Assembly (NCBI GenBank): GCA_020137815.1
Contig: CM035360.1
Coordinates: 1,612,001 to 1,676,000 of the forward strand
Direction of reading: 5' to 3'
Source: Hormiphora californensis
Lineage: Eukaryota > Animalia > Ctenophora
DNA length: 64,000 bases
A program made the position numbers and the translations under genes. This document shows positions 1,710-27,360 of the stretch, piece by piece. The notes under the pieces were generated by a model. It did not search any database and was not told the DNA's origin. It worked only from the letters and a program-made list of their open reading frames with translations. How positions within the stretch are numbered: position 1 is the first letter of the stretch; the number at the start of each line of letters is the position of its first letter.

Positions 1710-4700
1710 CTGTAGTAGCACATCTTGTACATCAGACTGTTATGCATGGCTTTTGAAGCGTCCTTATCCACCTTTGTATTCACCCGTACTGCTGTAGTAG
1801 TCGCTCTCTTTAATGTGTTCACCTGTAGAGAGATGATATTGATAAATTTAATTTAATGATTTATAATAATAATTTAGTTTATTTAGATAAATTCGGAATA
1901 AATTCAAGTGCTAATCAGTATTACTTAGCTTGTAAATTAAGGGATGCTGGTGACAGTTTTAACAAAACTACTCGTTTGGATTTGTAATCATTATATGTAT
2001 TACAAACATTCAGGAATCAGGGAGTGCTACTTAATTACTGCTAATTACCAACTAATTACTGCTAATTACCAACTAATTACTGCTAATTACCTTCAGGAGT
2101 ACTTCCCCCGATTCGAATCATCCAGAGGAACTTGTTAATATCATCGGAGCTGTACCCTGACATACCACCAAATATCACCAACACATAGTCCACATCCAGC
2201 TCCTGATCAAGAGGGTGGGGGGGGGGGGGTTGGTTGGTCATCCTATATTGGTGGGGGCCAGGGTTGGGTAACGGGGCCAGGGTTGGATAACAGGGCCAGG
2301 GTTGGGTAATGGGGCCAGGGTTGGGTAATGGGGCCAGGGTTGGGTAACGGGGCCAGGGTTGGGTAACGGGGCCAGGGTTGGATAACAGGGCCAGGGTTGG
2401 GTAATGGGGCCAGGGTTGGGTAACGGGGCCAGGGGTGGGTAACGGGGCCAGGGTTGGGTAACGGGGCCAGGGTGGGGTAACGGGGCCAGGGTTGGGTAAC
2501 GGGGCCAAGGTTGGGTAACGGGGCCAGGGTTGGGTAACGGGGCCAGGGTTGGGTAACGTAACGGGGGGTTGGTTGGTCAAGAGATGCATGGAAGAGGGGG
2601 GGGGGTTTGGGTTGGTGGTCAAGAGATGCATGGAAGAGGGTGAGGGGATATCATTACTTTTAGTGCCAGTGGGGGGAGAGAGAAACGAGTTCAGTATCTC
2701 AGATCGTATTGACAATTCACAACACCGCAAATTCCAGTTATGTAGGTACGCAGCATTTACTCCCGTTTACTAATACATATATCGATCCGAGAGGTGTATT
2801 AATTTTGCCAACCCTGTTATATCATTGGTTCGTGACCCCGCCCTGTTATTGACGTCACACGGTACATGACCAACGAGCCAATCACGTGAGCACTATTGTT
2901 GTACTTTAATCAATCTTGAATTAAAGTCGGATTTCACATGTACGGTCATTTTGGGGTGACAACTTCAAAAAATCCGACTTTACTAAGGAACCTTGGAACT
3001 TTCGAGCAATCCACGCTCTCTCTTACCCTTAGATAAAGTATCAATCTCACCTGCTCTCTCTTACTCTTAGTTAAAGTAACAATCTCACCTACTCTCCCTT
3101 AGTTAAAGTAACAATCTCACCTTCATAATAGTATAGCTGTGATCCTCCGGACTTGCCATTGCTTGTCCAACTCGGGAAATGTGAGTGTTATTCCAGGTAT
3201 TGTTGTCCACTATAATGGTCCTGAAAACACACATGAGTGTGTTAATTAATTAATTAATTAATAGTTAATTAATAGTTAATAACTAGGGTACTTACTACTT
3301 GTGTAAATAACGAATTGTGAGAAGAATTACTTTCATCTTGAATAATTTGGTAAAGTAAGCAATGTATGTTAAATTGTACACAACAAATTCGCTTATTTTG
3401 CCAAAGTAGTGTTTTGAAATTGTAGCCGTTTGTAACCAATAAATTCTGGCTCATCAAAAGTATATCATTTACCACCCTCCCTGCTTTGTAGATCGGGCAG
3501 TATAAACGTAAGTCGTAGCGAATCAGCTAGCCTTGGTGGGTGGCTTTATATATGCGGAGTTTGATTTGAGTATACATACTCAAATCAAACTCGGCATATA
3601 AAGCCACCCACCAAGTTATTTGTACATGTAGGAATCAAATAACTGGTTAAGAATTTTATGACTTCGGAAGTGGTAAACAGTTATCTAGGTTATGATTGAT
3701 CATACTATTAAGTACTTCCCTGAGGTTAAGAATTGTATGACTTCGGAAGGAATCCCTACTTACATACCAACAACCTCCATACCAACATCCCCCATACCAC
3801 ATAGGTATGGAGGGTGTTGGTATGGAAGCGTTTTGTGAGGTTCAGTGACCTCCATACCAACTCATAGATTATATTTAGAGAGTTGGTATGGAGGGTATTA
3901 AAGTCTCTATAACGCTTCCATACCAACTCGATGCAGCCATACCAACTTGTGAAAATCCTTGATATCTGGGTGTATGGTACTGCCAATTAGAGCTGTCCCG
4001 ATGTACGATTCAATTACACGATTCATATCACGATACGGTATTCAAGTGGCTTCGCTTTGGGTGGGGTGTGCCTTTCACGTACTGAGTGTGTTTAGTTTAA
4101 TGCAATACAAACATAAGATATTACAGGAACTATGTCTTGACTTTACTACAACGGACGAAGCGATAATCCTCCATACATCCACCCATACATCCACCCACTG
4201 GCCACTATAGCCATTCTGATCTCCCCGACTGTCCTCGAGTCATCAGAAATGTGCTCCTCAACCTCTCTCTTCTAATCTTCCTGATTCCCACTTCTTCCAA
4301 AATCCCTCCACGTCGGAGACACTTCAAGATCCGGCACGATACCCAGGACAGCGATGCCTCTCGCATCTGACTCTGTGTTCGGTACCAATAAGGATTAAGG
4401 GTACCTGCACTGGGTATCGTGTATGTCGGTTGGAGTAAGACTGAGTTACTGGGGTCTCGCCTATATTTTCCATCAAGGCTAGCATGAAAATACTATCAGA
4501 ATTATAGACCAATTATAAACCTCCCCTTGCAGCTTGCTCCATCTTTCCTGGTCTTGGTGTCCCTGTAATAGGTGTCTATACCGTGTTACCCAGCCACTGA
4601 AAACTATGGTGCTCCTATAATAGTGGCCTACATTTACTGTTGGTGACATGGACACATGTGCAAGATCGAAGTCAATTTGTGGAAATATACAGGGTGTCCC

Positions 4701-6854
4701 ACTGTCTTTGCGTGACCTGCGATTACTGGTCATGACCGGGTTCCGTCAAATTAATCAAAACTTATCGAAAAATTGGTCAAAATGGTTCTAACAAAAACCA
4801 GTGTTCTAGAGAATTGTCTGGCGAACATCTTAGTTGCAAGATTGACTTTCCAAGTCTTACCAATCGTCAGATATATCGTCGTAAAGTCAAAATTACGTGT
4901 TCATGAAATCCGACCGGGGTTCACGTTTTGAAAAATTCACAAATGCAAAGTTGCTCGGATCACATTGCATTCCTCATAAGAGTTGTGGGAAATTGTCTGG
5001 CGGTCATTTTGGTACCCGGTTTTTTGTCCTAGCTCAATGTTTAGAGTGTCTTATGACTGTCTAAAGACGAAATTCAACCAGCATTTTTGAGGGGATCACG
5101 TGTCATCAACAAATGGGTAAAATGATTTGAAATTTACAAGAGCTTCATTGGAATCGTCTAAGGTTCATTTTGATACCATGGTCTTTTCCATAGCTCTACG
5201 TTTAAGTTGCGTTATGACTGTAGGAACATGAAGATTTTTCTATGCTGAGCCTTAGTTGGTATCGGCTCACAACCCCTAATTAGGTGGCTCGGTGTCGTGT
5301 GTAATCCCATGATAATCAGCACATATCGTCTCAATTTCATCTAGACACTTGACAGGGTTGTTATGACGATTTGGCAAGGCCCCTGTTAATGTGTAGGATA
5401 CGCAAGTGGTCTATCTCAACCCTATCATGCACTAAGATGTTATTCAAGCAGCTATGAGCTTCATAACAGGGCAAAATGCAATGCGATACCTGAGAGCACT
5501 TTTGGGAAAATCCCAGTTCTGACAGTCATAAGACACTCTAAACATTGAGCTAGGATAAAAACCCGGGTACCAAAATGACCGCCAGACAATTTCCTACAAC
5601 TCTTATGAGGAATGCAATGTGATCCGAGCAACTTTGCATTTGTGAATTTTTCAAAACGTGAACCCCGGTCGGATTTCATGAACACGTAATTTTGACTTTA
5701 CGACGATATATCTGACGATTGGTAAGACTTGGAAAGTCAATCTTGCAACTAAGATGTTCGCCAGACAATTCTCTAGAACACTGGTTTTTGTTAGAACCAT
5801 TTTAGTAGTATAGTGTGGACAGTTGGGACCCCTTTTTCGCTCGAATATGTCACCTCCAAATATGGGCATGTCACGTGACACACGTGATGTCATATGACAT
5901 CACGTGACATCACATGACGTCATATGATGTCACGTGATTATGACGTCATGGTGTGACCTTTGTGACGTCACTAGCGCTGACAAGGGATCAGCGGGGTTTG
6001 AACTCGCTACCTTTGTAACAAAAGCCAATCTCTTAGACCATGCGGCCACCGTGCGGCATTAGATCATCACATTTGAGACCTTTTTAAATGCTATAACTTC
6101 ACAATAAGTCCACAGTGATTCTTGCTCCGTTCCTACCCTGTTATTCACTGTTATCTGGTGTTTCTCGTGTGTTCCAAGTATTACAAGAACACATAGAAAC
6201 AGCGAAAGAACACCCAAGAATAAAAATTTGTGGGTTCTCCGATTGCGCTGTAAACTCTATTAATCGAATTAAACATTGAATTTGTAAATAAAAACTTCAA
6301 GAATATCTGTACACATCAAAACGTATGCAAACAATGGTCTCAACCACCCATTTCGAAGAATGTCTTGATTCGCGTGCTATTTCAACTAAATCATCTCTTT
6401 CGATTTCATTCTTTACTTTCATTATATCGTCTTGATCTGCTATGACTTGTGCTGTTTCGAACACCATTGTATTGTTAGATGGATGGAAAAACTTTAATTC
6501 ATCCGTTTCAGTGTTCCTTAATATGTAACCAAAAGCTACATTGACTTTTACAGGTTTTTTGTAATATTTCAGTACTCCACCGAGTTTCCCGGGAATGCTA
6601 TCATAAGGGGAGATTGGAAAATGATACATATCCTTGAGAATCCCTTTCTTGACACTGTGCTTGATGGTTTTCCAGTTTTTGCGATAAAGCGGCTTTACTG
6701 AATCGCCTACGTTCTTCAGAAAATCATCCATGATGGAAATGAAACGGTTCTAAATCTCACTTGTATTTATAGCTAGTGAGAAACTACCTGTAACTACCGC
6801 ATAATTTTAAGTTCTCGCGATATGCTATTAGCAGTCAAGATTATAGTATACCAA

Positions 6855-6888
<34 letters not shown>

Positions 6889-9800
6889 CTCTCTCCCTCA
6901 ATTTCTTTTGGAGACCCCTTATTTATTTAGTGGATGATCCCTTGTTTATACAGATAGAATCTACACTCGAGTTCACTGTATATCTATTTGAGTGCCACCT
7001 TTAGTCCCATGTTCCGCTGATACCTTTCACTCTCTCTCTATCTCTATGTCTCTCTCTCTTATAGTCCACTTTTTTCTAGACAATATGTTATTATTGACAC
7101 ATTCCCGCAAACTTACACTACATCACGTGAACTAGTTTATTCCTAATTTGGCTAGCAAATATCAACAGGTGTCCTCATGGTACCGGAGTCCAGTGCTTTA
7201 GTTACCTTTCTTCATACGTGTGCTCAGTGAGTAACTGGAACAGCTCACACTGCAGCTGTACAGTTGATGTTGCTTGAAAGTCTGAATTCCGGGTGCTATG
7301 ACGCTATGTGCCATATTTCTGTTGCTGTGCTCTATACTGAATAAATGTACAGATACCAGTTTATACTTTGCAGAGCAGAGCTCAGGCTTGACTTTGGAAC
7401 TTATCTTATTTGTCCTTTATTCTTACTGGTATTGACATCTAACCGTGATGCTTACATGACTTTTCACATACATTGCTTTAGATAGTTACGATTGCGGACC
7501 TAAAGCTTCTTCATGTCATAGTATAGAGAGTCTTATAATCGACAACAGCTGAGGATGGCGAGACGGCTCTATCTCCTTTTATTTCTGGGAGTTTTCTTTG
7601 TTCAACCTCAACTATCTCATTTCTTAAATTTAAAGCGAAAGGTGAGATTATGTGACTAATAAATAAACTAATTGTATTGCTATGTAGGATATATTCAAGT
7701 TTATTGTAAGATAAATTTCACTTAAAGTGAGTTTTCTTCTTCAGGGCGATGATGAAGATGATGAAAGGCCTGGACCTTCTTCCTCTCACCACCATGTAAG
7801 CAAGTAGTCTTCAATAAAATTATCCCTATTCAATTTTACCATCAAAGATTCAGTCAAAACAAGATCTACCTTGACTGTTTGTGGTGTACCTCGATCTATA
7901 AGATATAGTAGTTAATGTGTTTTTTTTTCTTTCTTCAGTCCAGCGGCTGTGGAAATGCTGAACCATCAAATGTCAAATCTGTAAGTCCTAGTTCAATATT
8001 TTTGTAAGTTGATTCACGTCCAAACGACGAGCTTCATTCAAACAAGAACCAACTTTCATTTCAGGGGAAACATCGGGCTGTGACCTGCCCACTGTGTGAT
8101 AATACTATCCGGGCGTCACAGCTGGAAAATCACAAAGGAGGGCGCAAGTGCGTTAAGCAGTGTGAAATTTGCACTCGAAGAGTTCCCGGCAAAGACTATA
8201 AGGCTCACAGAGACGAACATCTCATACAGATTCAGCACAGTTTCTCTCACTCTCAACCCAGTCCGACCTCTCCGTTCCAAGCCGTTCAAGTAGATCCAGA
8301 GCTTGAATTGATTTACAAAGAGCACCCTGTTATCCAAACGAGCGTTAAAATAGGCAGGGTAATGGATGTATACAATGTTCAAGTAGATCACCTGAACACT
8401 GGAGAGCTATTAAATTGCTTCAAAAAAGTCTACAGGCATCAAAGAAACGCTTTTAAGCTCCAAATTTCGCTGGGAGTCATCCTGAAACATCAAAGAACTG
8501 GTGAACTTGCCTATTATCGTCCTTCCCAAAATAACCAGCTACTTTTGGACTCTCCAACACTGATAAAAAATTCTGAGGATAAGAGGGCTTTTATTAATTT
8601 GTTAGAAGGAATTGACCTTGAAAAATCCATTAGGCGCCCCTCTACTGAATGGTCTGCAGTTAAAGTGACCAATGTTAGCTTCTACGTGTTTCGACTGAAA
8701 GGTACTGCTATCGGAGGTGGTGTTGAGCTACCAGACCACTTGCTACGGAACAAAGGACTGATTTCTTTAGTGACTTCTAGGAAGACTGGAAAGCCCTATA
8801 GCGATCAGAAATGCTTCTTCCGGTGTCTCGCTCTGCACCAAGGTTCAGACCCTCAGTCGCTTGAAAAGAAGACCAATCAGCTCGTGAAAGAATATTGTAA
8901 CAAGGCATCTATAAAGACAAAGCAGTTTAACGGAGTCTCTCTAGATCAACTTGAGGACGTTTCACGACTTTTTGGAGTAGGAATTATTGTCTATGAGCAA
9001 GATGAGGATAGATCCACGTCTACAGTGTGGCGCTCCATCACCGAAGATAATGCCATGCACGTGAACCTGTTCCAAACTCATTTCAGCTTTGTCCAAGATC
9101 TTGAGAAGTTTTCATCTTCATACAGATGTCTACAATGCGACAAGTTTTTCGACCACCATGGTCACTATAAGAGGCACACGAAAACCTGTGACATGAATGT
9201 GAGAGAAAAGTACGTGGGCGGTACATTTAGTGTGAAACCCACAGTCTTCGATGAGCTAGAGGACTTTGGAGTGGACATACCATCGGAACTACGCCCTTAT
9301 CCTTATCGAGCTGTGTTTGATATTGAGTGCATGCTGACAAAGGAGGTAGACATTGCTGAAACAGATAGGACAAGCTACGTTAACCGTCATCAGTTGGTCT
9401 CCATCTCCGTGAGTTCTAATGTGCCGGAGTTTCAAACCCCAAGATGCTTCGTCCTCAACACACCTGATGGGCAAAAGACCTTAGTCTCAGAGTTCCTGGA
9501 GTACCTTAGGAAAATCAGTGATGCTGCAGCCTGTAGAGTAGGGGAACTGTACCAGGAGTACAACATTGCTGAGGTTGAGGACGATAAAATACAGTCACGA
9601 TGGGAAAATCACGTATCCCAGCTGCCTGTACTTGCATTCAACGGGGCCAAATACGACCTAAATGTTCTACGAGAGTTTCTGTTCCCAATCCTGGCAAAAG
9701 AAGATTCAGTCAGATTCATGATCAAGAAGGGCAGCAGTTACATGGCAATTTGCACAGATCAACTAAAATTCCTGGATATGATCAACTACGTGGCTCCTGG

Positions 9801-12800
9801 TTATTCGCTCGAAAAATTTACCAAAGCTTATGGTGCTAAGGATCGAAAAAGCTTCTTTCCGTATGAATACTTGGACTGTTTCGACAAATTGAAGGTAAAG
9901 AAGTTCCCGAAGTACCAGGATTTCTTCTCGTCGCTAAAGGGAAAAGTGTCACTTGAGCCTAATGTTGGGGAGAGCCTCTCGGATTTAGAGGTCCAGTACA
10001 TCGGTAGACAGCCCAGTAAAGATGATCCGATTTCTTTGAAGGAGATTAGTGAGTTGGGTCAGTTCCGGTATCACCAGCTGAAAGACATGTTTGAAAGGAA
10101 CAAGTGGTGTGTTCGGGACTACCTTATCTACTATAACAATTTGGATACTACTTCGTTTTTGGAGGCCATCGAGAACTTGGTTCAGTACTACAACGCTAGG
10201 GGAGTGGATGTGTTCAAGGATGCTTTATCAGGTAAATTGCTAACGGATATTATCTCGCATAGTAAATAATCAAATATTTTACTAAAATTACTAATAATCC
10301 GTTATAGTTCCTGGGATCGCAGAACGGATTGCCTTCAAGGGGCTGAATAATCGGGATGAGACCTTCCACCTTTTCAACGGAAAAAATAAGGACCTCGTAC
10401 ATCTATTTCTATCAAACAATGTTGGCGGTCCAGCTATCATTTTTGATCGATACCAGGAAGCAGGTATTTGAGATACAGTCAGAACCCGATTTAGTGACCC
10501 CCGATTTAGTGACACCCCGATTTAGTGACATGATAAATTTCCCCCGATATTGCAAATTAACGGTATTTGACCCCGATTTAGTGGCCACCCCGATTTAGTG
10601 ACCAAAACCCTTTCCCCCGAGGATGTCACTAAATCGGGGTCCGACTGTACTCCCAACATTCTACTCTAACTCTCCTAACTAGATTTATACTAACTTCTCC
10701 AAACTCAGATGTAACCAAAATACGCCATGATGATAACGGAAAACTCTGCAAGAAGGTGCTTGGTTTGGATGCCAACGCCCTTTATCTGGGTAAGATCCTC
10801 GGTCAATTTTTTTTGGGTGCTATCAAGCGCCGTAAATTCAATCACTTCTTGAAACGAGTGTTTGCTTTCTCGATTCAAAACTGAAGATAGTATTGTCTGA
10901 TAAATTTCAGCCAGTTACAGCTCAGGATTTAAGCTGCATGCTCGGCTCAAAACCGTAAGAGCCACTGAATAAACACACATGTGTTAGTAACAGACGTAAA
11001 TATTTTTCCAACAGAATGCATGTCGAGGGAAATGCCATGTGGGATGTTCCTAAGACGACGAGCACCAGACTTCATTCTAGAGTACCCTAGCTACACCTCA
11101 AAAGTGGCTATTGAATGGTTAAGCTGGGTAGAAGAAGACCAGGGTATAGAGATCCAACATGCCAAAAACAGCGGTGAGGTGAGGATTGGACCAAGAAAAA
11201 TTCCAGTTGATGGCTTTCACAGGTAATCACATCAACACGCATCTGATCATGTGATTTGATTTCTATATAGCTACCTTTTGCACGCACATTAAATAAAGAG
11301 CTTTGGAATCAGAATAATTATCACAATAATACCGTTAATCAGGATAAAAGTGATTATCTTAGACTAATAATCCATTTCAGAGAGTCCAAAACAGTGTACC
11401 AATTCCACGGTTGCTGGTTTCATGGATGTAGAGAGTGCTTCCCAGACAATCGTGATGTAGAGAAGTCTGGTAGAAAATCCCATGATTTCAACTTCAACAG
11501 AACTCAGAAGGTCACTACCGAACTGGAGAGTCTCGGCTATACAGTAAGTTTTGTACACATGTTACTGTAAGGACAAAGACCGTAGCATCTAATTCAATGT
11601 TCAATCCTATTTTCAGCTGGTTGAAATGTGGGAGTGTGACTGGAAGGAGAGAAGGAAATCCGTTCAGCTGTCAACAAAGCATCTTTACCCCTTCGAGGCG
11701 TCATATCGTCTGACGGAAAAGCAGATTTTGGCTGCTATTCAGAAAGGAGAGATGTTTGGTGCAGCTGAAGTTGACATCAACGTACCCGATAATTTAAAGG
11801 ATAGGTATGAGAAATTCAGCCCCCTAGTAATATCGATCCATTAGACAATCTAATTAAACTTGTTTTAAAATGGTCCAATAGCTAGAATATTTCAGGTTCA
11901 GTGAGATGACTCCAATATTCAAAAATGTGGTGATTACAGAGGATGACATAGGCGAATATATGAGAGATTACATCCGGGAGACTGGGGAGAAGTTCAAGGA
12001 TCGGCGCAACCTAATAGGTTCAATGTTCGCAGAAAAAATTCTCTTGGTCACTCCTCTTCTCAAGTGGTACTTGGACAACGGTTTAGTCGTCACTAAGCTT
12101 CACCAGTTTGTTCAATTCCGACCTGTACGCTGTTTCAAGTCATTTGCAGACAACGTCTCCAATGATCGACGTGCAGGTAAGATATTCAGCACATTTTCTC
12201 ATCTTTATTCTACTTTTGAAGATTATATAAACTTATTTTTAATGAACCTACGCTTTAGGGGATGTAGATCCGAGCAAAGCCATCATTGCGGAGACGTCAA
12301 AGTTAATTGGCAACAGCGTATACGGCCACAGCATCATGCGCAAAGACCGTCATACATCCGTTAAACTCGTTGATCTAGAGAAAGCTAGCAAGTTGGTGAA
12401 TGATCCTCTAATGGTCAGCCTGGAAGAGATGGAAGAGGAGACATTCGAGGTACAATTTTGATGAATAATTGTGACTATATACACAATTATGTATTATTTA
12501 CTTGTTATGGAATAATATTCCACTATCCCCAAGGTTGTTAGTAAAAAGAGAAGAGTGACGTATGATCTACCAGTACATCTCGGCTTCTTTGTCTATTCTC
12601 TGGCAAAGCTGAAAATGCTGAAATTTTATTATGATGTACTCGATCGCTTCATTGATAGAAGTAATTTTGCCCTTCTAGAGATGGATACTGGTGAGAATTA
12701 TATTGGAACTCACCGCCGTAGACGGCTCTCTGCAGCTGAGAACTATCTACGATGGGAAAAATAGACGTGTGGTGATATAAAAAGTTATAATAACTTCTGT

Positions 12801-15800
12801 TTTTCTAGCTTTATTTATTAGAATTTCAAGTGATATAACATTTCAGATAGTTTGTACCTCGCTTTGGCAGGCGACTCTCTGGATGATATTGTGAAACCCG
12901 AGCTCAAAGGAGAGTGGACGGAGATCAAAAAGGAATGGTTTCCGAGGCCTCACAACAAAGCTTACGACAAGAGAACACCTGGTAAGTTCTCTCATTTCAC
13001 TCTTTTCTTTCTATAATAAGCAGATTTTAGACAATTCACAATCATTTATCGAAAATTAAAATTCCTCAGGGTTATTTAAAGTCGAGTATGAAGGGGAGGC
13101 ATTTATCGGGCTCAACGCAAAGTCTTATTTTTGCAAAGGGGACCAGATAAAATATAGTTCAAAAGGAGTGTCTCATACAAATAATCTCTCGTTTGAAGAC
13201 TACAGATCCGTCTTATTGAAACAACCAGTGAAAGATCAGCTCAATCGAGGATTTAGGATGAAAAAGGGAACAATGCACACATACTCTGTCACAAAATCGG
13301 GTCTTAACCACATTTATGTGAAGAGAAAGGTGCTGGAAGATGGGCTTAGGACGACCTATCTAGACATTTGAGAGCTACATCATTATATTTTAGCATGAAC
13401 GACGACTGATTATACAGCTATCGGGATTTATTTAGATATATATTTTCTAATTTATTTTCGAGAAAGTCATAAAACAACTGATTTTATTTTAAAAGAAATA
13501 TACAAATTTAATTATCATATTCTAGACTTGAAATTAGCGATAGCGTTCTCCCAATAATTTGGAATATATTATAAAAGTCTTTGGAGTGATTTAAAAGTAA
13601 CAGTTTGATTTCTTCTAGGCTTTTGCAATCCACCACTCTGATAAGTTTTCTGCCTTTTGCATTTAGACGCTTTTTCTGGGATACGACTAGAGGTACAGCT
13701 CCATATTTTAAGCCAGTAAAAAGATTTTTAATTGCTTTAAGAAGTTTATTGCTACGTGCAATAGATTTAAAACTTTTCAAATCAATCAGTTGTTGTAGTT
13801 CCAAGTAGTTCCGTATACTTTTAGCATTGATTATTGTATCCGAAAACTCATTAAATTTGGTATCATTAAAGTTGGTCCTGAATTCATCGAGTTGTTTTTC
13901 AAACAAATGAATTCTTTCAAGATGTTGCTTTGATTCATTGAGTTTCGATTTGTATAGTCTCTCGTATTTTCGAGCTTGACTATCTCGTTTCTGGTATAGC
14001 GTCTTAAAGTCAATATCAGTCAATGGATCAAATTTTTTCTCGGATTCTTCCTTTTCATCATCAGTTTCATTCACTTCCTCCTTATCTAGAGACGTCTCGA
14101 TTTCCTCATTGTCATCAACTGAGTCATCACCAACTGGCCCCCACTTTTCATGATCATATTTTTCATGTTGAAGAAGATGATAAACTGTTTCGAATTTCAG
14201 GTCACAAACATTGCAGGAATACATTTTTGCGGAAATAAACTTAATAAAAATAGTTCTCCTTTTATACTCGTCACTGTTCCTCGATCAATTTTACTGTTCG
14301 TCTTTGTTCCTACAAGTCGGACAATTCTCTTCCTCTTCTGGGAACACCTTTTCTATGATATCTTCCACTGTTTCTAGATTTTCTTGCAAAAGTTCACGAA
14401 TCACGATCAAAGATTCGTTATCCTTTATCGCATTTATTAGAAGTTCCTCTTCTGGTGTCAGCTCAATCTCTGAAAAATCTGCATTAATTAGATCATTTTT
14501 GAGACCAAAACACTTCAATAGGCTCGAGTATGTCTTTTCATCTTCACTTTCTGGTGAGTCAATCTCATCATCAGACAATTCAGATAATTCCTCAGGCTCA
14601 GAATCCTGGTCAGACTCTGAATCCTCATTCCGCTTTTTATCATCCAAGCGTAGAGCTTTCAGAAACGATCTTGAATTAGACATGATTGGAAATGATAATC
14701 ATGGAAAACATCCCCCTTTTATAGTGTTCCCGGGTGTTCTCTCTATGTTCCGACGTGTTTTTTTAAAAAGCTCTTTTGTTCCTCGGTGTTCCTCGGTGTT
14801 CCTTTCAGGAACCCTTTGATTCCTTGCTGTTCTTTCGATTACATGTTTATTCCTAGGTGTTTCTAACCGTTCTAACGTGTTCTTATGATGTTCCTGTGTG
14901 TTCCCGTGATGCCTGGAACAAGCGAGAAACACCAGATAACGGTGAATAACAGAGTAGGAACACTAGAAATAGATTGCATCACCAAGGAACTGCTAGGAAC
15001 ACCCATAGAGCATACGGAGAATAGACTAGGAACACTTGGAACGATTTTAAGATTCCTATAATTAACAAGGAATAGCTAGGAATGGCTAGGAACGGCTAAA
15101 ACACAGCCAATGTCGCTTGCCAGCTCTAAGCAGTCATTTTAGGTGGTACTGTACAATCTATGTACTGTAGGAATAGCTAGAATATCAATTATCAGGGGAC
15201 TTATTGTGAAGTTATAGCATTTAAAAAGGTCTCAAATGTGATGATCTAATGCCGCACGGTGGCCGCATGGTCTAAGAGATTGGCTTTTGTTACAAAGGTA
15301 GCGAGTTCAAACCCCGCTGATCCCTTGTCAGCGCTAGTGACGTCACAAAGGTCACACCATGACGTCATAATCACGTGACATCATATGACGTCATGTGATG
15401 TCACGTGATGTCATATGACATCACGTGTGTCACGTGACATGCCCATATTTGGAGGTGACATATTCGAGCGAAAAAGGGGTCCCAACTGTCCACACTATAC
15501 TACTCATTTTGACCAATTTTTCGATGAGTTTTGGTTAGTTTAATGGAGCCCGGTCATGACCCAAAATCTCAGGTCACGCAAAGACAGTGGGACACCCTGT
15601 ATTACCACCATACCATCACGAGTACCAACACCCTCATACTGCACTCAACTCAACCTTATAAGGTCTAAACCCTAAACCCCTCGGCCCTCCTAAACCTCCA
15701 TCTAGACCACATAAACATCACCCCTCAAATCTGAACAGAAATAAATCACGTACATACTCATACACCGTCTTCGTACTAACAACTCTTTCACCCTGAATCC

Positions 15801-22809: not shown

Positions 22810-25800
22810 GTTGCGAAAAATTTCGCCAGTCCTTGGCATCTATAACGTAAAAAGGTTCTAGAAAAAAGATTGAGGAAATCTTACCATACATGTTACTACT
22901 TTATTGGACACGGTGCTCCTGAAGGACGGTCAACCTCGACCAGAGCCCCTAGCCAAACCACCGGTTGTGTGACCTAGAGGGGACCTCTGGGAACCGTGGA
23001 GGCTGGAGCACCGGTTAGAAAAATATATGGCTGGGGCCTTAGCCGGAAAATTGATAGAACGATAGCTATCGTTTTTTTCACTTGAACAATACGACCTTTT
23101 CAAAAAATATTCCTTGATCAGCAAGATATAGTGTACCCCCACCTATTTTTTGACGTAGAATCGAATGCCGTTGAAGTCAAATCTCTAAAATGTTGGAAAA
23201 ATGGTGAAAATAGCGTTTTTAGGTGTTTTTTGGTGAAAAAAGCGTTCAAACTGGTACTAGATGATGAGATACAGTCCCAAAAGTATGACAAATCGCTTTT
23301 TTGGGACCTTTTCGCCCTAGAAGCAGATTTTTATGAAAATCTGGTACAGCGCCTATTCTCCGTATACTTTCAAAGAAGGTGAATATTGGTCTAATTTAGC
23401 CAATTTTGAAGAAAAGTCATCCAAAACAGTACTAGATGATGAGATAGGGTCCCAAAAATATGTCTAAGCAATTTTTTGGGTCTTTTTCGCCCTAGAAATA
23501 AATTTGCATGGCGGTCGGATGATATGTTTCCTCTCGGTAGGCCTCTGAAGTAGGTGGAAATAGCCAAAATATAACGATTGCGGCAAATGAATGTGAATAA
23601 ACGTGTACCAAACCCACTTTAGCATCATGTATGACCTATCTCTGGGCTACTGGACTATGCAAGAGCCATACATGATGCTTAAATGGGTTTGGTACACGTT
23701 TATTCACATTCATTTGCCGCAATCGCTATATTTTGACTATTTCCACCTACTTCACAGGCCTACCGAGAGGAAACATATCATCCGACCGCCATGCAAATTT
23801 GTTTTTAGGACGAAAAAGGCCCAAAAAATCGATTAGTTTTATTTTTGGGACACTATCTCATCATCTAGTGCTGTTTTGGATGACTTTTCTTCAAAATTGG
23901 CTAAATTAGAGCAATATTCACCTTCTTTGAAAGTATACGGAGAATAGGCGCTGTACCAGATTTTCATAAAAATCTGCTTCTAGGGCCAAAAGGTCCCAAA
24001 AAAGCGATTTGTCATACTTTTGGGACTGTATCTCATCATCTAGTACCAGTTTGAACGCTTTTTTCACAAAAAAACACCTAAAAACGCGATTTTCACCATT
24101 TTTCCAACATTTTAGAGATTTGACTTCAACGGCATTCGATTCTACGTCAAAAAATAGGTGGGGGTACACTATATCTTGCTGATCAAGGAATTATTTTTGA
24201 AAAGGTCGTATTGTTCAAGTGAAAAAAACGATAGCTATCGTTCTATCAATTTTCCGGCTAAGGCCCCAGCCATATATTTTTCTAACCGGTGCTCCACGGT
24301 TCCCAGAGGTCCCCTCTAGGTCACACAACCGGTGGTTTGGCTAGGGGCTCTGGTCGAGGTTGACCGTCCTTCAGGAGCACCGTGTGGACCTAATATAAGA
24401 GCTGTACTCCACCCCTATAATTGATTTTCTCTCGTATTCCCGTTCCTTTCTCACTTTTAAAATTCAAGGTGGTCGACGACTTCCGTGGAAGTTCATTTTT
24501 TCTTTTAATGCATTTAATGGATGATGGATGATGCAGCATTCTATTAAAGCAAATGATAAATTGATTTCTCCTGCGGGAATGTTATATTTCAATTAAATTG
24601 ATAGATCCCCTCCTTCTGATATATACATGTTTAGCTCTATAGAGTTCTGGGGAACCATTTCAAAATGATCAATATATTGATCATACTTTTGAAAGGGTAG
24701 GGTATTATCTCTACTTTGATGTATTGTGGGTGGCCGGGTTAAATAGCTAGTTCTGTGGTATACTACCACCTGTTTAATGATAAGGCACCGCTAGCTAGGA
24801 GCATTTAGACTCGACACAAGTTGCATACCATGATAGGGGCATTTAGACTAGAGATAAATATACAGCTCGACGCAAGTTGCATACCACCCTAGTACCATGA
24901 TATATGGTTAAATATCTAGTTCTTATCTGTGGTTTACCATGATAAGGTATCGCCAGCTAGAGGCATTTAGACATCGCCAGCTAGGGGGATTTAGACTAGC
25001 GTTAAATAAAGCTCGACATGAGTTGCATACCACCGCTTGTACCATGATAGAAACCACCCTAGGGTTGAGGGTTAGCTCGTCTCTGGCTGTTGTTCATTCT
25101 GGCCTGTGCTGCTGGCTCCTGATTGGCTCTCACATCAACCAATCAGAGCTGCCGCCCCGCCTGCAGTATTTAAATAGCCGGATTTTCAGTCTACGAACCA
25201 CTTCAACTTCATCATCAAGTCATGCTTCCATCGTATGCCTGTTTGAGCTCTTAGCTTGGTTAGGGCTTTTGTCAACAAGCTATTGGGGAGTGGAGACGGT
25301 CCCTAGCCGATACTTTTTCAAGCTGAATCTAAAGAAATCAATGCCACAGATCACCTAACATGTATTTAACCCTGTCACGGCCGTGCTTGGAGCGCAGTAG
25401 CCGGAGACGAGCTAACCTTCAACCCCACTGTGACTAAATCACCCCTATAACGCTCGCGTTGAGGGATAATTACCTTACTTTGTCGAAACTTTATTGCTCT
25501 GGACTTCAGAGTTTGTCGCATTCTTGGCGTTTATTGTTTCCTGTTTTCCCCGTTTTCTCAGTTCAAACACCACAGTTCGGAGTCTGATCTGGCTAGATTA
25601 CATTGTGTTCAGGAACCGATCGGACCAAGTAAACAACCAATCAGAACTCGTTATTTAGGTCACGTGACTGGTTATCAGCCAATCAGGGACCAGTATTTCC
25701 TGATTCGGTCGGTTCCTGTTACATTGTAATCAATAAACTAACCCAGTTACAGTTGTAGCATGTTGTTATCTCCCTTGGCAACGATGGACTGGGAATATCT

Positions 25801-27360
25801 TAGGAAGAATGGGACACTCAATGACACTGTTAACAATGAAACAGCCCAGCAGCAATTCGCTACGGACAGCCTCTATATATATGTGAGTTTTCTCGTTTTC
25901 TAATCACAAGAAAATCACCCTCATTTTCGAACTTTTAGGTTAGATGAGATTTTCCAACCCATTTCCCCCGTTGCAGTTCAGTACGTCCTTTAGTATACCC
26001 TACAACGGGAGCTACGACCGGCTCATGGCGGGGTGTCTCCTCTTCTGCATGGTATACGGGATGATAACCAACACCCTCACCACCACCTTCCTAGCCAAGG
26101 AGCTCCGGAGAATGATCAATAACTCCAGGAGATCCCACACCCAGGGGTTCTTCTACTGTTTCTACCTCATCACATCGATTGTAGACCTAGTGATTAGTAC
26201 AACTGCCTTCCCCGTGGCACTCTCCCTGGCGTTCAATAGGGAACCTGTCCTGTTCGCTAACACTGCGTTTTGCACCTTCTGGGCATTACTCTGGGAGGCT
26301 CTTCCCTTCCTCTCGGTGTTTCTAATCGCCCTTGTAGCAGTGGGCCGTGCCATGACCCTCTTATGGCCATTAGCGGCTGTATCCCGAATAAAACGAGTGT
26401 TCCTCGGTGTGATGTGTTTCTATACTGTGTTCCTGGTCGTCAGTAAGGTGGTTCCGATCTGTTTAAAGTGGGACAAGGGCGGCTGGCACCGTGGTAATCC
26501 ATATCACAAGGACTATCTAGCTCACGGGCACTATAACAAGGATTCGGTGTACTGTTTCGTGTACCCACATGACGTTTACTGGAAGATCAACTCGGTCCAA
26601 TCAGCGGTCCAGTTTGGCCTTCCCGCCATTATTATCCCGGTAGCCAGTGTCACGTGTATTACAGTCATTCTCCGACTGAAGAACACTTGCAAGGCCCTTC
26701 AAATCAAACGGAAAAGTTTCAAGAAGACCTCCACACTGACCGTCCTGATTTTCTGTACAGCCTACATGCTCTGCAACATCCCGGTGTTCATAAATTACAT
26801 CATGTATTCTCGGGTGTGGTTATCTAACATTGCATACGCTAAACTATTCAATACTCCCTACCTGTATTGGTACAGTTGGAGCTTGACTTATGTTGTTAGC
26901 ACATGTGTTAACTCGTGTGTTAACCCTACTATTCTAGTTTCAAGGCTTCCTAAGTTGCGGCAATGGCTGTGGAATCAGTTACTGAAGCAGCCCATTGAGA
27001 TTATTAGTAAGACTTTCTCAAGAACTGTATAGCATGTCTCGAACACCTTATCAGCATTATCTTGAACTCACACCCTAGATCCTATGTGTGGGGGGTCATT
27101 GGCGAGGATAGGAGTGAGGTCAGACCGGACAAAAATATTTGCGTTTATTTCGAAAGTTTATAACCACACGACTCACGAGGCTATCTTTTTATTTAAATTT
27201 TATCGAACTGTATTTATCCAACTACGAAAAAGAAAGAATCAAATTTGTAGGGGTTGGCACGGTTCATATAAATATTTCATTTATTTGTTGTTTGTTTCCT
27301 ATTTCATTCAGCTGCGCTGCTCATTGTAAAAAATAGTTTTCATTTTTTAACGAAAACTAT

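Follow-up and report, generated by a model that had tools for sequence, protein, structure and literature searches.

Introduction

Polintons (Mavericks) are recognized by terminal inverted repeats (TIRs) that end in (AGT)2 and by a 6-bp target-site duplication (TSD) (PMC8097293). In their polymerase, pPolB, the domain upstream of the vOTU domain, D1, has been assigned as a fused terminal protein (TP) by Krupovic et al. (2024; 10.1101/2024.03.18.585575, PMC11161782). According to the same work, the linking residue sits between the last helix and the last strand, the little-finger fold is a DNA-binding fold, known stand-alone TPs bear helical extensions that are proposed to dock on the polymerase, and the role of D1 as a primer is a structural prediction and not the outcome of an experiment on any Polinton. 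In the published cases, the TP is either part of the polymerase or encoded apart from a polymerase that has none, the latter in adenoviruses and a Stylophora polinton; the text of that work mentions no duplicated, paralogous, or additional TP copy. Passages of PMC12721341, 10.64898/2026.10.13.758929, and 10.1101/2023.08.22.554363 contain no fused-plus-free arrangement, and none was found in the literature searched, the coverage of which is incomplete, including for subscription papers and figures. Here, we report a real and conserved variant of this known system from the ctenophore Hormiphora californensis, in which a second, free D1 is encoded beside the retained fused D1, and we consider whether the free protein may act as a primer in trans.

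A minimal Polinton with an in-frame polymerase

The window, i.e., the whole stretch of 64,000 nucleotides analyzed (contig CM035360.1, 1,612,001–1,676,000), contains a 9.7-kb unit at window positions 5804–15504 in which the free gene is located. The unit is bounded by perfectly complementary 308-nt TIRs with AGTAGT/ACTACT ends, the left one (5804–6111, plus strand) beginning with AGTAGT and the right one (15197–15504, plus strand; 100% complementary to the left) ending with ACTACT, and it is flanked by copies of the 6-bp TSD CATTTT at 5798–5803 and 15505–15510 (both plus strand). The (AGT)2-ended TIRs, the 6-bp TSD, and the pPolB by which a Polinton/Maverick is recognized are all present. Besides pPolB, the gene set of the element consists of three small genes, namely the free gene and those for a C2H2 and an acidic protein. 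No ORF for an integrase, ATPase, protease, or capsid protein lies between the TIRs, and tblastn with six proteins or protein pieces of these types from related loci returned nothing in the window. The element is a minimal Polinton derivative, and its perfect TIRs and TSD indicate a recent insertion; as it has no integrase gene, we infer that its integration depends on a helper.

The Polinton inserted into an arm of a small inverted-repeat element of high copy number (4687–5803 plus 15505–15602), in the other arm of which the target occurs once (4779–4784), and one contig joins 4687 to 15600, i.e., a version without the whole stretch. Elsewhere in the window there are an intronless 362-aa ORF (25944–27032), which by eye resembles a seven-transmembrane receptor, and, at 23004–24385, a 630-nt inverted repeat whose spacer is 33 nt long.

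Two further minus-strand genes accompany the free gene. The C2H2 zinc-finger gene (13508–14224, 238 aa) has a homologue just upstream of the free gene in metagenome locus L001; the acidic ORF (14291–14683, 130 aa), which has a TATA box, yielded no family and no match to the acidic gene of L015. By an eye count, Pfam-checked for L011 only, a C2H2 gene on the same strand immediately precedes the free gene in 6/22 loci (L001, L004, L010, L011, L013, and L015), an order that echoes the zinc-finger-then-D1 order at the pPolB N-terminus. Loose contig ends from two runs, in which position 6234, downstream of the free gene, is joined to sequence like the end of the zinc-finger gene (~13516–13545), hint at rearranged copies.

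The pPolB gene occupies 8065–13371 on the plus strand, with 11 predicted exons that amount to 1342 codons plus the stop from 8065 onward, further 5′ exons being uncounted. At least 10 spliceosomal introns (GT-AG) are predicted from the sequence and from homologues, all of them compatible in phase, and Mnemiopsis gene models match the exons at 40 to 63%. The plus-strand domains comprise the fused D1 (8278–8706), with a candidate linking Thr at 8644–8646; the vOTU protease domain (8707–9108), the Cys (8812) and His (9079) of which are invariant in 30/30 aligned sequences; and motifs Exo I–III and Pol A–C, the polymerase domain containing as an insertion two motifs of a VSR-like nuclease, which span 11206–11430 across an intron (the Pfam Vsr match is weak and was obtained on the homologue P0185, E 0.005). 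Since D1, the candidate linking Thr, and the vOTU Cys/His are all preserved in the in-frame pPolB, we take the free gene to be an extra copy and not a split of the polymerase, in agreement with an earlier note on this DNA, according to which the element encodes a TP-like protein in a fused as well as in a free form. A broken polymerase rescued by a free TP was ruled out on the same grounds, as the pPolB frame is open and neither D1 nor vOTU is damaged.

The second pPolB intron contains a short repeat of very high copy number (~10500–10650), which leaves the frame unbroken. By eye, 14 of the 22 metagenome homologues (P0082–P0103) terminate directly behind one and the same site, D/E-x-x-S-G-K, or, for a second subgroup, behind YYNNR; these common end sites suggest that intron positions are shared in this pPolB lineage. 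The pPolB of L016 is intronless, and intact vertebrate Mavericks are reported to be intronless (PMC8097293).

The free gene and its family

The free gene (6297–6731, minus strand) is intronless, starts with ATG, and encodes a stand-alone TP-like protein of 144 aa, the C-terminus of which coincides with the final β-strand of the D1 fold. The earlier note had aligned this ORF end to end with the pPolB N-region, and the alignment holds over nearly the whole length: BLASTP gives 36/133 identities (27%; E 2e-12), the three segment pairs quoted in that note are present in the sequence, and the Smith–Waterman score of 115 lies far above that of 1000 shuffles (mean 34.4, sd 4.8, maximum 61), by which chance resemblance is ruled out. 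A profile–profile comparison of the free family with fused D1 (HHalign), a check that the earlier note had proposed, returned a probability of 99.9% over 142 columns. The free protein is thus homologous to D1 of pPolB over nearly its whole length. At the DNA level there is no similarity to pPolB, the best blastn piece being 12 nt long with E 1.1, and the 64-kb window contains the ORF only once.

A TATA box of its own was also described correctly: TATAAATA (6764–6771, minus strand) places TATAAA 40 nt upstream of the ATG, and the other two minus-strand genes of the element have theirs at −42 and −40. Among 21 homologous loci, some of which are near-copies, 15 have TATAWA within 80 nt upstream, compared with 8.5% of random 40-nt windows. 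One sequencing run that may derive from RNA gave 4 placed contigs, none of which covers the free gene, a result that speaks neither for nor against its expression or the predicted splicing. The ORF is intact, as had been stated, with no indel among related copies; the variants listed for these copies inside the ORF number 27, of which 21 are synonymous and 6 non-synonymous (expected synonymous share 0.20, p 2e-10), and dN/dS is 0.04 to 0.24 in the 10 unsaturated of 16 listed locus pairs. On this pattern of substitutions the free gene is judged to be under purifying selection. A pseudogene or shadow ORF was ruled out by the synonymous excess, the low dN/dS, and the indel-free ORF.

A search with the free protein gave 38 matches among 47 candidates, mostly of 142 to 152 aa, and 3 pPolB fusions among longer proteins; an exhaustive profile search gave 1595 matches, and in its top 150 proteins vOTU follows directly after 64 of the 152 matched domains. 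The free gene is encoded in 22 of 317 metagenome stretches. Neither Pfam nor PHROG has a family that matches the free protein, and the ESM Atlas gave no usable match. Neither profile found a relative in IMG/VR, where a polymerase scan gave two partial matches, both without the free gene, and no relative was found in the phage collection; prokaryote genomes gave a single match, which lies on a MAG contig of 725 bp and is probably contamination. Two proteins, P0227 and P0239, have two D1-like domains per chain, and in P0227, which has no vOTU and is possibly a domesticated form, these domains are embedded in zinc-finger repeats.

A tree was built from 53 free and 30 fused domains, leaving out two truncated proteins, two near-duplicate loci, and five truncated or broken loci. 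In it, the free proteins form one side of a single branch (100/99); the branch holds when 104 more diverse rows are added (SH-aLRT 94). The free profile scores E ~1e-34 on D1 of the intronless pPolBs P0078, P0079, and P0104 and 5e-24 on that of the neighbour, and a sister relationship between the free family and the neighbour's D1 is weakly rejected (p-AU 0.046, 30 rows, i.e., marginal). The tree branch, the profile scores, and the p-AU value together indicate that the free/fused separation is old, as the earlier note had supposed; the free proteins are best described, from these comparisons, as an old, conserved family of ~145-aa stand-alone marine Polinton proteins of their own and not as a private duplicate. 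What stands of the proposed paralogy is therefore the homology to D1, but not a recent copy of the element's own pPolB: a recent DNA duplication out of the neighbour was ruled out by the missing nucleotide similarity together with the separate tree branch.

Fused and free forms were directly seen in one element only in the Hormiphora window, and 0/22 metagenome loci reach the pPolB N-terminus. This would fit a free gene that came as a passenger from a split-type Polinton by module exchange and that primes for helpers and not for its own pPolB, both forms being together by an accident of mosaicism; a split Polinton is known in Stylophora (10.1101/2024.03.18.585575), and the mean identity of the free family to the neighbour's D1 (0.29) is no closer than to other D1 domains (0.30–0.32). 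We nevertheless consider such a passenger improbable, because the survey of co-occurrence that the earlier note called for, although indirect, points the other way: both forms occur among Pleurobrachia bachei proteins, with 91% identity to the free gene and 93% to the polymerase; separate contigs in a second organism cover the free gene and the fused D1; contig sizes 68,258 and 168,500, which are common to another fused-pPolB cluster and another free-gene clade, indirectly link the two; and in L016 and L022 the polymerase that adjoins the free gene most closely resembles a D1-bearing pPolB of Mnemiopsis. The wider tree places the free branch among fused domains, within a weakly supported group (87) to which the Hormiphora polymerase lineage also belongs.

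Fold and candidate linking residue

The free protein and the pPolB segment 8278–9108 were modeled with pLDDT of 92.6 and 92.3, respectively, and in the models the order of helices and strands is identical over the common part. Among 48,161 solved chains, Y-family little-finger domains account for 9 of the best 16 structural matches of the free model, e.g., 4IR1 with Z 5.7 (rmsd 2.8, 87 aligned), an entry that also belongs to the published TP comparison (10.1101/2024.03.18.585575). A designed protein ranks first with Z 5.8, and none of the matches reaches Z 8, below which, according to the tool, a match can reflect a common arrangement. The little-finger/PAD fold (four strands and two helices) is thus present in the free model with a modest best Z of 5.7. 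Residues 27–142 of the pPolB model match the same little-finger entries (4IR1, Z 4.8) and residues 150–277 match OTU proteases (Z up to 9.3). Taken as models, both share the little-finger fold published for the PRD1-type TP, at modest Z (5.7 and 4.8).

These results reproduce the assignment of D1 (TP) and D2 (vOTU) as given by Krupovic et al. (10.1101/2024.03.18.585575), and the statement of the earlier note that the shared region has been assigned as a fused TP agrees with that source, D1 lying upstream of the OTU-fold domain. In structure searches along the lines that this note had suggested, both models match little-finger entries, but neither PRD1 TP nor adenovirus TP/pTP is among the named structural matches listed for the free model. 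Foldseek against the PDB gave nothing at E ≤0.001 for this model. In viral structure searches with the free and polymerase models, adintovirus, MELD-virus, bidnavirus-like, and mavirus proteins were matched, and for the free protein an adintovirus protein came first (E 1e-4), followed by bidnavirus-like and MELD-virus polymerases. Two uncharacterised proteins of oyster and abalone herpesviruses in BFVD (V9QMP0 and K4JUJ4; E 0.01 and 0.04) also resemble the free protein.

The candidate linking residue, Ser126 (codon 6354–6356, minus strand), is located in the loop R123-H-S-S-K-W128 between the last helix and the last strand. Position 126 is Ser/Thr in 51/53 free and 30/30 fused sequences, and, in the wider set, in 13/16 stand-alone representatives and 59/59 fused sequences; a candidate priming Ser/Thr/Tyr, the retention of which the earlier note had proposed to check, is thus retained. 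Only two columns with a hydroxyl are preserved in all fused and nearly all free sequences, and position 126 is one of them. Ser85, in an SNN motif, is conserved equally and is a second candidate. Two residues before position 126, a Pro is found in 43/53 free members (His in the Hormiphora copy). Free and fused sequences have K62, S85-N86-N87, R123, and W128 in common, and positions that are near-invariant in fused D1 are fixedly changed in the free family (N37 to H, T134-N135 to V/I-C), in which D139 is a new invariant. Because these fixed changes affect near-invariant positions of fused D1, they suggest that the role of the free family may have shifted.

Such family-specific changes are what one would expect if the free protein does not prime and instead binds DNA ends or the D1 site of the polymerase, as a regulator, a competitor, or an end-protecting or targeting factor (for example, in nuclear import or hand-over to the integrase). 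This is the main rival of the primer reading, and we regard it as rather unlikely, ahead of the other alternatives. It is consistent with the DNA-binding nature of the little-finger fold and the basic character of the free protein (pI 9.0), with the missing docking extension, with the varied genes that adjoin the free gene, and with the loss of the linking position in 2/53 close and 3/16 distant members, the latter having Pro there. However, Ser/Thr126 is kept in nearly all members, and a decoy would need no such residue unless it is structural.

The changed positions could also constitute a new chemistry, i.e., a metal or catalytic site of His37, His83, Cys135, and Asp139 that is unrelated to priming. 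Each of the four is found in 53/53 members of the close family, where H37/C135 replace the Asn/Asn pair of fused D1. In the wider set, though, they are kept in only 12, 15, 14, and 11 of 16, respectively, H83 also occurs in 34/59 fused sequences, and no enzyme fold was matched by the free protein in the structure searches; we hold little belief in such a site.

A possible primer in trans

The reading that we favor is that the free protein is a ready-cut primer supplied in trans, for which we see the case as evenly balanced. Each fused pPolB would start one strand only, because its own TP is cut off and stays on the 5′ end; if the fused primer is spent once per polymerase, which we infer from the published cleavage model, a cheap extra supply would be useful. 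The free gene, being short, intronless, and TATA-driven, could yield primer in far greater numbers than the polymerase gene with its length and its 11 exons. The free protein would dock at the normal site of D1, and its Ser126 would receive the first nucleotide at the AGTAGT end; already-processed polymerases could thereby start again. A single, ancient event in a marine Polinton lineage would have given rise to the free family out of the pPolB N-terminus, and the gene would have been kept even in a stripped-down element that lost integrase, capsid, ATPase, and protease genes and presumably borrows the integrase from a helper.

A primer role is favored in that the free protein ends where D1 ends, that it keeps the candidate linking residue, and that it is retained with pPolB in a minimal element. 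As the free gene outlived the loss of virion and integration genes, a role in replication or at the ends is indicated. Counting against a primer are the predicted status of the TP role of D1, the Z values below 8, the lack of a PRD1 or adenovirus TP among the listed matches, the missing C-terminal extension, the fixed changes of the free family, and the Pro at the linking site in distant members. Moreover, with the fused TP and the vOTU intact, a second primer is in principle not required. In favor of a primer, the free gene lies just downstream of the pPolB end in 2/22 metagenome loci; against it, the neighbors of the gene in these 22 loci include an RVE integrase in two, an adenain-type protease in one, and also an ATPase-like gene, so that it is not tied to a replication module.

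More tentatively, and with somewhat less confidence than in the primer itself, we suggest that marine-animal Polintons may prime with a one-shot fused TP and a free, re-initiating one, the duplicated state being an intermediate on the way to adenovirus-type TPs by copying and then losing a domain, not by fission. The locus therefore bears on how a fused-primer polymerase starts again once its primer is spent, and it suggests how adenovirus-style separate TPs could derive from fused ones by way of a duplication. The TP assignment of D1 dates from 2024, and a small, well-folded natural version with a single domain is a simple reagent for tests of priming and of the linking residue; the family is unannotated in Pfam and PHROG, yet widespread in marine data.

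Comparison with known systems

The closest described system is the Polinton pPolB with fused TP-vOTU-Exo-Palm (10.1101/2024.03.18.585575), with which the Hormiphora element shares the little-finger D1, the OTU Cys/His, the position of the hydroxyl, the AGTAGT TIRs, and the 6-bp TSD; it differs from the fused pPolB so described (PMC11161782) by the added free D1 copy. The Stylophora pistillata polinton and adenoviruses are similar to it in that they have a TP in a separate gene. Their polymerase, however, is without D1 and begins at vOTU, whereas the Hormiphora pPolB retains D1 in frame. Adenovirus pTP and PRD1 TP, according to the same source, bear helical extensions, whereas the 144-aa Hormiphora protein is without a C-terminal one: in the model it ends at the last strand, and its N-terminal helix is common to fused D1.

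Marine molluscs and nematodes carry pPolB2 Polintons that contain VSR (Jeong et al., 10.1101/2023.08.22.554363); these have the same VSR-like insertion and a marine animal host. In contrast to them, the Hormiphora pPolB has 10 predicted introns and its element is without capsid, ATPase, protease, and integrase; the likeness is one of features. Finally, the Y-family little-finger/PAD domains have the same four-stranded sheet and two helices (Z 4.6–5.7), but the identity is 1 to 10%, and the free protein is distinct from them in being stand-alone, in its extra N-terminal helix pair, and in its viral context.
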